Program-made: the position numbers and the translations under genes
Source of the DNA: a virus
IMG/VR virus record: IMGVR_UViG_3300042542_003555
Coordinates: 64,001 to 128,000 of that record
Reading direction: 5' to 3' (one strand)
Length of the DNA stretch: 64,000 nt
Notes under the pieces: generated by a model
Database searches by the model: none
Told to the model about the DNA's origin: nothing
What the model saw: only the letters and a program-made list of their open reading frames with translations
In this document: in pieces, positions 10,504 to 16,227 of the stretch
How positions within the stretch are numbered: position 1 is the first letter of the stretch
Layout: the number at the start of each line of letters is the position of its first letter

Positions 10504-11061
10504 ATGTCAGCTATGATTATATATTCAATCTACAAATGTGTCAATAAAATAAACGGCAAAGTTTACATTGGGTTTGATTCCAATTGGCCTAAAAGAAAAA
10601 CCTCACATAACTACATATCATCTTCAAATAAATCAAAACATTCAAGTTTCCACCAAGCCATTAGAAAATACGGATGGAATAATTTTGAATGGGAAATTTT
10701 ATATCAATCGAAAGATAGAAACCACACATTAAAAATTATGGAACCATATTTCATACAAGAATACAACTCATATAAATGTGGATACAATAGAACTAAAGGT
10801 GGTGAAGGAACTTTTGGTAAAACTCAATCTATCAAAAATAAAAAAAATCTATCGGAAAGACAAAAAATTAAAAATAAAGAAAGTAGATGGTATAATAACG
10901 GAACAAAAAATACATTTTCAACCATTCATCCTGGTGAAGGTTGGGTTTTTGGAAGACTCAATCAAAAACCAACAACAAAAGGAAGAAAGTGGTATAATAA
11001 TGGAACAAAACAAATATTATCAGAAACTCAACCAGAAGGTTGGATATTAGGCATGTTGTGA
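10504..11061 (+). mobile_element. Free-standing GIY-YIG homing endonuclease, antisense to its neighbours
   Basis: SIY...N.INGKVYIG, FHQAIRKYG..NF, GYN.T.GGEG; two C-terminal WYNNGTK...GW..G repeats. Confidence 0.88.
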
Positions 11062-12821: not shown

Positions 12822-12829
12822 TATTTATA
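12822..12829 (-). promoter_or_regulatory. T4-type late promoter overlapping the rubrerythrin stop codon
   Basis: Exact TATAAATA on the minus strand. Confidence 0.7.
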
Positions 12830-13259
12830 GTTGTCCTGCTTTGTAAGCATCAAGAGTTTTCTTGAACTTACCTGCATGAGAACGTTCTGCTTTCGCTAAT
12901 GTTTCAAACCAATCTGCAATTTCATCAAAGCCTTCTTCACGGGCTGTCTTAGCCATACCTGGATACATATCGGTGTATTCGTGAGTCTCACCTTCAATGG
13001 CAGATTCAAGTGCCTCTGCAACATTACTTACTTGCATACCTGTTGCAGGATCGCCAGCGGAACCATTCAACAAATATTCCATATGACCGTGTGCATGTCC
13101 AGTTTCACCTTCTGCTGTGTGACGAAATACCGCAGCAACTTCTGGTGAACCTTCAATGTCAGCCATGTTTGCAAAATATAGATAACGGCGATTTGCTTGT
13201 GATTCACCTGCAAATGCTTCTTTCAAATTCAATTCAGTTTTAGTTCCTTTGACGCTCAT
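12825..13259 (-). CDS. rbr: Rubrerythrin, short form without rubredoxin domain
   Basis: [43 protein letters not shown] di-iron motifs. Confidence 0.95.
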
Positions 13260-13271
13260 AGTGTCTCCTAA

Positions 13272-13346
13272 TTAACGATTCGCAATATACATTGTGATTT
13301 CAAAACCAAAACGCATATCGTTTGCTTGTGGTGTCATCCAGGTCAT
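13272..13346 (-). CDS. pqqA: PQQ precursor peptide PqqA (MTWMTPQANDMRFGFEITMYIANR)
   Basis: 24 aa with W..P..D.RFGFEITMY.ANR and the E-x-x-x-Y core; AGGAG RBS; below the ORF-track cutoff. Confidence 0.95.
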   Translation of the reverse strand: MTWMTPQANDMRFGFEITMYIANR

Positions 13347-13392
13347 AGTAGTCTCCTAAAATTAAAAGTCGTAGCAACATGCTACAACTGAA

Positions 13393-13422
13393 ATTATATA
13401 TCGACTTGATGGGATTTGTCAA
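13393..13422 (-). promoter_or_regulatory. Sigma70-type promoter for pqqA-rbr
   Basis: TTGACA-18 bp-TATAAT. Confidence 0.8.
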
Positions 13423-13440
13423 GTAGTGAAAATCATGATT

Positions 13441-14334: not shown

Positions 14335-14997
14335 TCAATATTTATTCTGGTGATAATACTTAATAGCTTCTGCTAAACCGTTTAGATGATCTTCGGTTTT
14401 CTCTTTGAAGATAATTGGTGGTGAGTCTTTGACTGCCATAATAATAATAAGATTGTTAATTGGGGTGCCAATTAGTTCTTCATACATCAAAGAGTATGCA
14501 GTAGTTTGCCAAAAGTATTCAAGAATATCATCACGTTTCTTTGCTCTACTGGCAGTCTTAAAGTCAATGATAGATAGTTCACCTTCATATTCTGCTATAC
14601 AGTCTACTCTGCCAGCCATACCTATCGTTGTAGACCAAAGTGCTTGCTCTTGATAGTGTATGTTGTTTATATAGTTCAGATAAGGCTTGATTGAGAGGAA
14701 ATACTCAACAGCATCAGGCATGACACCTTTCATATAATCCTGTTTGTTGTTAAGATAAGCCTCGCAGATAGTGTGTACATTAGTGCCACGTGAGGTTGCT
14801 TGTTTGGAGATACGATTGGCTTCTTCTTCACCAACTCTTGCTCTCCATTCCATAATGGCTTTCTTTTTCTTGGCACCAACAACAGTAGTTACAGATGGTA
14901 GCTTAGTACCATCTGGCAACTTGTAATATCTTTTACCGTCAGGAAAAGTTTCTGATTGAAGGTCTTGTATTTCTTTAGGTGGGCAATAGTTAAACAT
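14335..14997 (-). CDS. PD-(D/E)XK exonuclease of T4-like phages
   Basis: PSVTTV, RGT.VH, AGRVDC, IIDFKT, Q..AY. Confidence 0.9.
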   Translation of the reverse strand: MFNYCPPKEIQDLQSETFPDGKRYYKLPDGTKLPSVTTVVGAKKKKAIMEWRARVGEEEANRISKQATSRGTNVHTICEAYLNNKQDYMKGVMPDAVEYFLSIKPYLNYINNIHYQEQALWSTTIGMAGRVDCIAEYEGELSIIDFKTASRAKKRDDILEYFWQTTAYSLMYEELIGTPINNLIIIMAVKDSPPIIFKEKTEDHLNGLAEAIKYYHQNKY

Positions 14998-15653
14998 TAT
15001 TTAAATCCAGGACCACCAACCCAAAGTACCAATGAACGACGAATACCTTTAGTGACTGGTGTAACACGATGTAATGTCCATGATGGGAAGAACCATGCAC
15101 GGCCTTTTTTCTGTTCTAAGTTTCTCACTTCATCATTACCTGTTTTAACATGTAATTCACCACCTTCAAATTCAGATGGGTCGCTTAGTAACAATGACAT
15201 GGACAACTTACGATATGGTGAGTTACCACCAGCAAGAGAGGTATCGGTGTGCCAATCATAGTGACCTTGATCATGCTGTGTGTAAGAACCAAGTTGTGCT
15301 AGTTCATAACAACCAGTCAAATCAAACTGAAAGAATTGTCTATTGGCAGACCAAACCGCATTGGTTATCTTTTGCCAAATATGGTCATTCTTACTATCAA
15401 CACCCATCCATGCAATGTTTGTTCGACGGAATTTTGGATTTACTTCTCCATTAGAACCATATCCTACTTGTGCTGCTGTCTGATCGTGCCATTCTGGTCG
15501 TGATAAAACATAATTAATGTCATCATCAGAAAGAAAACCTTCCCACCAGCACAAGTCATCTTTACCTGGTGCACTAAAAGGTGCAATTGGGTATACCAAC
15601 CCATGTAGAATTACATCACGTTTCACTTTTATCTCACTTTCTATACATGTCAA
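14997..15653 (-). CDS. 2OG-Fe(II) oxygenase (PKHD-type)
   Basis: YDWHTD, RKLS, FEGGEL, FPS..LHRVTPVTKG.R.SLV.W. Confidence 0.92.
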   Translation of the reverse strand: MTCIESEIKVKRDVILHGLVYPIAPFSAPGKDDLCWWEGFLSDDDINYVLSRPEWHDQTAAQVGYGSNGEVNPKFRRTNIAWMGVDSKNDHIWQKITNAVWSANRQFFQFDLTGCYELAQLGSYTQHDQGHYDWHTDTSLAGGNSPYRKLSMSLLLSDPSEFEGGELHVKTGNDEVRNLEQKKGRAWFFPSWTLHRVTPVTKGIRRSLVLWVGGPGFK

Positions 15654-16227
15654 TCATACGGTTTCTAACAAATGGATGTTGTCTTTCCCATCTTTTATCA
15701 CCAGCGAATTCTGCAAAAGGTCCACTCGCACGAACAAAATGACAGAATACTTGTCCAGAATAATAATCTTCGGGACCATCACATGGTTTTCTCCAGTGCA
15801 ACAAATCACATCCTTTATACACAACACCATCACCTTCAGCTAAATCAAAACGATGTCCTGCCATATATATGGGCCACGAATAGTGATGAGAACGACCTAG
15901 TTGTATTGTAACAGATATCTCACATGAAGGTCTATCAGAATGTATCTTCAGTTCATCACCATTGCCATATAATCTAGCATAAGAATAGGTAGGAATGAGT
16001 TCTTCTTCAAGAGCATCTTCAAGTCTTGGCCATACTTGTTCTAGGATTGTTTCGCAGGCAAATTCACCATGACCCGCTGCTTTTGAATTTGGTATCTGTG
16101 GATCACCACCTACTCCAAATGCACCTTTAACTGAGAGTAGGTGGGTTAGAAACTTAGATACATCAGGACTGACGAGTCCTCTGAAGTGTAAGACACCTTT
16201 ACTATTAAAATATTCACGGGAACTCAT
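15634..16227 (-). CDS. 2OG-Fe(II) oxygenase
   Basis: PTYSYARLY, L..HSDRPSCEISVT, GD.V.Y.G....HWR. Confidence 0.88.
   Translation of the reverse strand: MSSREYFNSKGVLHFRGLVSPDVSKFLTHLLSVKGAFGVGGDPQIPNSKAAGHGEFACETILEQVWPRLEDALEEELIPTYSYARLYGNGDELKIHSDRPSCEISVTIQLGRSHHYSWPIYMAGHRFDLAEGDGVVYKGCDLLHWRKPCDGPEDYYSGQVFCHFVRASGPFAEFAGDKRWERQHPFVRNRMIDMYRK

Follow-up and report, generated by a model that had tools for sequence, protein, structure and literature searches.

A stand-alone pqqA gene in a large T4-like phage and its counterparts in phages of betaproteobacteria

We confirmed that a 24-codon open reading frame (ORF) of a large T4-like phage is a genuine stand-alone pqqA, the gene for the precursor peptide of the cofactor PQQ. 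Such genes are common, and usually unannotated, in phages of PQQ-using betaproteobacteria. Comparison of the viral copies shows that the peptide is maintained by purifying selection, and it is quite likely that phage pqqA tops up the PQQ pathway of the host, keeping the PQQ dehydrogenases loaded. The stretch of DNA analyzed, referred to here as the window, comprises 64,000 nucleotides (bases 64001 to 128000) of a 160,983-bp IMG/VR viral record with a CheckV completeness of 96%.

RESULTS

The 24-codon ORF is a stand-alone pqqA gene

The first-pass annotation of the window had read the ORF as a phage-encoded pqqA with no other pqq genes in the window and had proposed a PqqA profile search as a check. 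Both parts of the claim held. The 24-residue peptide scored 35.4 bits with the Pfam PqqA profile PF08042 (cut-off, 21.1; E value, 1e-8) and 35 bits with the NCBIfam equivalog TIGR02107 (cut-off, 20; E value, 9e-9), placing it above both curated cut-offs. Its length fits the PqqA range of approximately 20 to 40 residues. The E-x-x-x-Y pair, from which PQQ is built, corresponds to Glu16 and Tyr20, and an N-terminal W-x-x-P (W3 and P6), the putative leader for PqqD recognition, is also present; its W and P were invariant in the viral set listed and in the sampled bacterial peptides. The ORF is the sole PqqA match in the whole phage genome.

Profile searches for PqqB, PqqC, PqqD, and PqqE gave no match in the window or anywhere else in the 160,983-bp record, and the PQQ-dependent alcohol dehydrogenase family was likewise not matched in the record. 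The searches for PqqC, PqqE, and the dehydrogenases did recover their targets in bacterial genomes. Linkage to pqqBCDE, the usual trait of PqqA, is thus missing in the phage genome. This is not disqualifying, since bacterial orphan pqqA genes far from pqqCDE exist and are usual in Methylophilaceae (PMC4109929).

The gene lies in a T4-like early or middle region that resembles the corresponding region of Pelagibacter phage Mosig. Its flanks are viral. The order on the same strand is PD-(D/E)XK exonuclease, small ORFs, tmRNA, pqqA, rubrerythrin, an ORF of unknown function, cell-wall hydrolase, late-transcription factor gp33, and helicase loader gp59 (Table 1). Upstream of the exonuclease gene are two adjacent overlapping ORFs, the first encoding a 2OG-Fe(II) oxygenase and the second having no family match. 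A GIY-YIG-type homing endonuclease gene was observed beside the gp59 loader gene, on the opposite strand. Megablast of the 6 kb around pqqA against GenBank phages returned no match, and tblastn with the baseplate or lysozyme protein matched the M23 domain only, which was uninformative on the relatives of the phage.

Table 1. Features of the pqqA region (window coordinates)
Feature	Position	Strand	Basis or detail
Rubrerythrin gene	12825..13259	-	PF02915, 95.7 bits
pqqA coding sequence, 24 codons and TAA	13272..13346	-	ORF list; PF08042 and TIGR02107 matches
RBS AGGAGA, 5 nt ahead of ATG	13352..13357	-	Read from sequence
10-bp hairpin followed by T-run	13367..13389	-	Terminator-like site; folding energy, -12.8 kcal/mol
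Sigma-70-type promoter, TTGACA, 18-nt spacer, TATAAT	13393..13422	-	Consensus scan, 12/12
-10 hexamer TATAAT	13398..13393	-	
-35 hexamer TTGACA	13422..13417	-	
Upstream box TCATGATTTTCACTA	13424..13438	-	10/12 positions of TCATGA-N3-TCATGA
Two-piece (permuted) tmRNA, tag ANDEKFALAA	13427..13790	-	Rfam RF01850, tmRNA_permuted, ARAGORN
PD-(D/E)XK exonuclease gene	14335..14997	-	
Two adjacent overlapping ORFs	14997-16227	-	
GIY-YIG-type homing endonuclease gene	10504-11061	+	

pqqA is widespread in phages and usually unannotated

The 8-residue core of the peptide was back-translated to a degenerate DNA pattern, and IMG/VR was searched with an Ile and a Val version of it. By our own estimate, the Ile-core pattern is expected less than once by chance. 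It was found in at least 120 contigs, and every listed match was a complete PqqA ORF of 23 to 26 residues; chance is therefore excluded. The Val-core pattern was found in at least 120 further contigs. Among the matches listed, there were 65 distinct peptides in the Ile-core set and 48 in the Val-core set. Approximately half of the listed Ile-core set share genes with the phage of the window, and 25 loci share none with it. Across related phages, pqqA occupies several different genomic positions.

Host contamination or a prophage edge was rejected as the origin of these loci. When the flanks of the 240 viral loci listed were compared with the pqqB-E region of 71 bacterial loci, none contained pqqB-E-like ORFs, the four weak matches being unrelated ORFs. 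The GC content was low at all viral pqqA loci listed (medians, 37 to 38%).

Cultured phages also carry the gene. When 50,697 GenBank phage records were searched by tblastn with the peptide, nine records of cultured Methylophilales or Methylophilaceae phages were recovered, namely, Melnitz (four isolates), Venkman, MEP301, MEP401, MEP402, and P19250A; "all nine" refers here to the cultured methylophage records that this search returned. Five of the nine (Melnitz, Venkman, MEP301, MEP402, and P19250A), which belong to four unrelated phage types, were inspected. In each, pqqA was intact (TIGR02107, 34 to 41 bits) and unannotated in GenBank, and neither pqqC nor pqqE was found in these five complete genomes. 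In Melnitz (MZ577097.1, 76100-76208), for instance, pqqA is on the plus strand between a hypothetical gene and tRNA-Leu, and an opposite-strand hypothetical ORF, MelnitzEXVC044M_152, is annotated there instead. As far as they could be searched, the papers describing these cultured phages do not mention pqqA. Additionally, a weak full-length tblastn match (50% identity; E value, 0.3) was seen in Acinetobacter phage MD-2021a (CAKLQF020000010.1 and CAKLQH020000055.1), which could be a gammaproteobacterial-type viral pqqA or a chance match.

The gene of the window is similar to those of the cultured methylophages (Melnitz, Venkman, MEP301, MEP401/402, and P19250A) in being a solo pqqA of 23 to 24 codons that scores above the HMM cut-off. 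However, the peptides of the cultured methylophages have an EVT core and mostly a VMNK tail, which is the Methylophilaceae type, while the peptide of the window has EIT and IANR. Moreover, the Melnitz gene is located among tRNA genes near the baseplate module, whereas that of the window adjoins a tmRNA.

The viral peptide is conserved as a protein

Selection was analyzed with the 103 unique viral coding sequences of the Ile-core set listed, leaving out the pattern-fixed codons. The pooled pN/pS was 0.38. W1, P4, and R10 (numbered as in this comparison) were invariant and A6 and N21 nearly invariant, and the third codon positions of P4, A6, and R10 varied freely. The search pattern itself prescribes E and Y inside the core, so that finding them unchanged in every viral copy is no independent test. 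The invariant residues, the free third positions, and the pN/pS value together indicate that the ORF is conserved as a protein, under purifying selection. In line with this, pqqA is maintained across related and unrelated phages, in at least 240 contigs and in the nine cultured-phage records.

Phage and bacterial pqqA share upstream signals

The expression signals that the first-pass annotation had pointed out were recovered as well. The strong RBS is an AGGAGA, and AGGAGA-type sites were located ahead of nearly all viral and bacterial pqqA copies examined. The promoter, described earlier as near-consensus sigma-70, matches at all hexamer positions and is the best promoter-like site within the 2.1 kb scanned. 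A hairpin begins approximately 4 nt past the -10 hexamer and sits between it and the RBS; it either forms a stem-loop at the very 5' end of the pqqA transcript or terminates read-through from the tmRNA. The leaders of viral pqqA genes were enriched in structure (median z, -1.3 to -1.6) compared with control windows (-0.1 to -0.3). Similar hairpins are visible ahead of bacterial orphan pqqA copies.

The upstream box abuts the -35 hexamer and is centered near -45, and its second half-site is degenerate in the pqqA copy of the window. With up to one mismatch, the box core ATGATTTTC was present in 53 to 64% of the unique viral pqqA upstream regions versus 6 to 7% of the background windows, and in 34% of the bacterial pqqA upstream regions versus 2% of the background. 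The box is located approximately 86 to 92 nt ahead of the pqqA start codon. In viruses, its core lies at approximately 86 nt, and this core could be seen in four of the five isolate phages examined. In Burkholderiales, TCATGA-N3-TCATGA (at least 10/12 positions) was found 105 to 150 nt ahead of pqqA in 41 of 116 loci, compared with 1% of background windows. The bacterial loci showing the repeat included L124, L140, L154, L157, L165, L173, and L181, among others. We regard it as a candidate operator of the PQQ regulon. As far as we could find, the shared upstream box is unpublished.

Use of the upstream cassette as a general early promoter of the phage was rejected, since the combination of box, -10 hexamer, and stable hairpin was seen solely at pqqA in the whole phage genome. 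Because the box and the 5' hairpin are common to phage and bacterial pqqA, the phage gene seems to have been taken up as a whole host expression unit. The gene of the window is similar to the orphan pqqA genes of Methylophilaceae and other Burkholderiales in length, in its conserved residues, and in its solo state away from pqqB-E, and it shares with bacterial orphan copies the TCATGA-type box, the 5' hairpin, and the AGGAGA. It differs from them in being virus encoded, in the degeneracy of its second half-site, and in promoter hexamers that match the consensus perfectly. With this combination of perfect hexamers and a degenerate half-site, the promoter may work without a host activator.

The neighboring tmRNA and rubrerythrin genes

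The pqqA promoter directly adjoins the tmRNA gene, which scored 153.9 bits with beta_tmRNA RF01850 (gathering threshold, 84) and 156.3 bits with tmRNA_permuted. Neither this adjacency nor the hairpin had been mentioned in the first-pass annotation. Among the 120 related viral loci listed, 21 had a same-strand tmRNA near pqqA, located upstream in 19 of these 21. The tmRNA is context and no part of the pqqA function.

The rubrerythrin gene starts 12 nt past the pqqA stop codon, has its own AGGAGA, and is probably cotranscribed with pqqA. Its product is 72% identical to the rubrerythrin of phage Mosig, its nearest named relative. pqqA was not found in Mosig, which infects SAR11, and PHROGs contains no family for rubrerythrin. 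A same-strand rubrerythrin gene within approximately 4 kb of pqqA was present in 18 of the 120 Ile-core loci listed versus 1 of 125 Val-core loci. Loci in which rubrerythrin recurs beside viral pqqA include L011, L021, L043, L053, L074, L098, L100, L115, L121, and L092; the order of the two genes varies, rubrerythrin usually being just upstream. Both the tmRNA and the rubrerythrin link are nearly missing from the second, Methylophilaceae-type set listed, and they may do no more than reflect a variable region common to a single T4-like lineage. PqqE is oxygen sensitive, and PqqC releases peroxide. It is a matter of speculation that rubrerythrin might protect the former or remove the peroxide made by the latter.

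Bacterial pqqA of the same type, and the host

With one genome per prokaryotic species, the same DNA pattern was found almost exclusively in Burkholderiales and other betaproteobacteria among the matches listed. None of our conclusions draws on the unpublished genome G031. Burkholderiales genomes have the core in the form RFGFEITMY, and by this comparison the peptide is of a betaproteobacterial type. Named freshwater genomes of Rhodoferax, Albidiferax, Polaromonas, and Limnobacter contain the tail DMRFGFEITMYIANR of the window's peptide, whose exact C-terminal 15 residues were present in only 3 of 401 sampled Burkholderiales genomes. Of the 65 Ile-core viral peptides listed, one was identical to a sampled bacterial peptide. 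Furthermore, two Burkholderiales genomes of 1.3 Mb and approximately 35% GC (G183 and G379) each contain three identical orphan pqqA copies that are dispersed far from pqqCDE, each copy with its own terminator hairpin downstream (loci L260-L266). Both genomes encode exactly the same peptide as the LD28 phage P19250A.

Bacteria with this peptide type have the rest of the pathway. In six such genomes, PqqC was detected in all six, PqqE was matched in all six (above the cut-off in five), and PQQ-dependent alcohol or methanol dehydrogenases were present in five. Methylophilaceae have 3 to 12 pqqA copies and a single pqqB-G set (PMC4109929), a disproportion suggesting that the dosage of pqqA is important.

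The tmRNA of the phage is of the betaproteobacterial two-piece type, with a best identity of 82% over the coding piece in a DNA search of the 401 Burkholderiales genomes. PqqA was not found in the five genomes with the most similar tmRNA, and PqqC and PqqE were absent in the two of them that were also checked. Naming the host from the tmRNA was therefore rejected: genomes that have the closest tmRNA and are devoid of PqqA do not name a PQQ maker. Since the pqqA type points to PQQ-using bacteria and the tmRNA to PQQ-less lineages, these appear to be two host-like genes with different donors. A betaproteobacterium, of the Burkholderiales as defined by GTDB, is the probable host.

DISCUSSION

We consider it quite likely that the phage gene is a functional copy of pqqA, an auxiliary metabolic gene that supplies precursor to the PQQ pathway of its host. 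The model builds on the identity of the peptide, on its solo state, on its conservation under purifying selection in many phages, and on the rest of the pathway being present in bacteria with this peptide type. According to this model, host RNA polymerase would start at the consensus sigma-70 promoter and transcribe pqqA, probably jointly with rubrerythrin and at an early stage of infection. The 24-residue peptide, once translated, would be passed to the PqqD/PqqE, PqqB, PqqC, and peptidase of the host. As one peptide is consumed per PQQ made, the phage would replenish the only pathway input that is used stoichiometrically. Periplasmic PQQ-dependent dehydrogenases (XoxF/MxaF-type methanol or alcohol dehydrogenases) would then remain supplied with cofactor and continue to provide energy as host transcription falls off, to the benefit of the phage. 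Like the first-pass annotation, we infer that pqqA in this way sustains respiration during infection. The model assumes that fresh PQQ synthesis is needed within a short infection, PQQ being a recycled cofactor. Points against the model, besides this assumption, are the similarity of the phage tmRNA to tmRNAs of genomes without PqqA, the absence of pqqA from the SAR11 phage Mosig, and the rarity of the exact C-terminal form of the peptide among the sampled Burkholderiales genomes. A parallel is offered by classical auxiliary metabolic genes such as cyanophage psbA, a phage copy of the fastest-turnover host component, which keeps the host machine running during infection. Unlike psbA, phage pqqA specifies neither an enzyme nor a subunit but a peptide that a RiPP-type cofactor pathway uses up as its substrate.

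Three other explanations have to be weighed, each of which we judge less likely than precursor supply. pqqA could be a neutral passenger, i.e., a small, easily acquired host promoter-gene cassette that recombination in variable regions spreads among phages although they gain nothing from it. Its several positions in related T4-like genomes, its presence in unrelated phage types, the host-like regulatory DNA with which it travels, and the homing endonuclease gene nearby in the window would all fit such a history. Against it, the ORF is intact in all of the at least 240 contigs and nine cultured-phage records, the peptide is conserved despite synonymous change, as the pN/pS value reflects, and four unrelated phage types of one host group have repeatedly acquired or retained the gene, which points to selection. 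We therefore regard the passenger explanation as improbable. Even less probable is a role against the pathway or outside it, in which the peptide would be a decoy tying up PqqD/PqqE, a signal perturbing the PQQ regulon, or the substrate of another phage or host enzyme. The lack of any other pqq gene in the phage is compatible with this, as is the finding that the variable positions differ from those of the sampled bacterial peptides, with the single identical peptide among the 65 listed. A decoy would, however, be expected to diverge or to lose its reactive residues, while the viral copies retain, without exception, the residues that bacterial PqqA conserves, the cross-linked Glu and Tyr included (for these two, this is imposed by the pattern), and the P19250A peptide is the very one found in the 1.3-Mb host-type genomes.

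It is very improbable that the ORF is untranslated and that conservation instead acts on an RNA or DNA element associated with the 3' region of the tmRNA. The ORF does lie 80 nt past the tmRNA gene, behind a terminator-like hairpin, and the two genes adjoin each other in the 21 of 120 related loci mentioned above. Yet a tmRNA is missing from the vicinity of pqqA in approximately 100 of those 120 listed loci and in almost the entire second set. Moreover, the sequences differ mostly at third codon positions and retain the same amino acids, a strong RBS is present, and the HMM matches are to a protein family.

The basic idea of a viral pqqA has already been published. Coutinho et al. (2020, Microbiome 8:163; PMC7678222) described viral PqqA in Methylophilaceae phages of Lake Baikal (population VP_266), and a 2026 reservoir study lists viral PqqA (PMC13188868); our literature search revealed no further report beyond these two. 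As in the window, the pqqA of VP_266 stands alone, and it was read as an auxiliary metabolic gene for PQQ-dependent methanol oxidation in the host (PMC7678222). The Baikal contigs differ from the phage of the window in also carrying methanol dehydrogenase and, in VP_139, radical-SAM genes (PMC7678222). In contrast to the Baikal case, the carrier described here is a 161-kb T4-like phage in which pqqA is in a probable operon with rubrerythrin next to a tmRNA, and the IANR tail of its peptide is found, among named genomes, mainly outside Methylophilaceae. The window thus adds a further case, that of a large T4-like phage with a peptide of a non-Methylophilaceae type, together with its anatomy, i.e., the tmRNA and rubrerythrin link and the shared upstream box.

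More tentatively, phage pqqA genes could be whole host cassettes, composed of operator box, promoter, 5' hairpin, RBS, and peptide, that are wired into the PQQ regulatory circuit of the host and that, in the lineage of the window, have been joined with rubrerythrin as one operon. If so, phages of PQQ-dependent betaproteobacteria would almost universally be marked by a solo pqqA, a signature that has been overlooked. Taken as a whole, this broader proposal is possible but rather unlikely.

With only 24 codons, pqqA escapes routine annotation. The presence of the gene in cultured OM43 and LD28 phage-host pairs makes the hypothesis of precursor supply directly testable, and solo pqqA may serve as a host-prediction marker for viral contigs. 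In place of an enzyme, the phage would provide a consumable peptide substrate of a host cofactor pathway, which has implications for the turnover of methanol and other one-carbon compounds in lakes and oceans.
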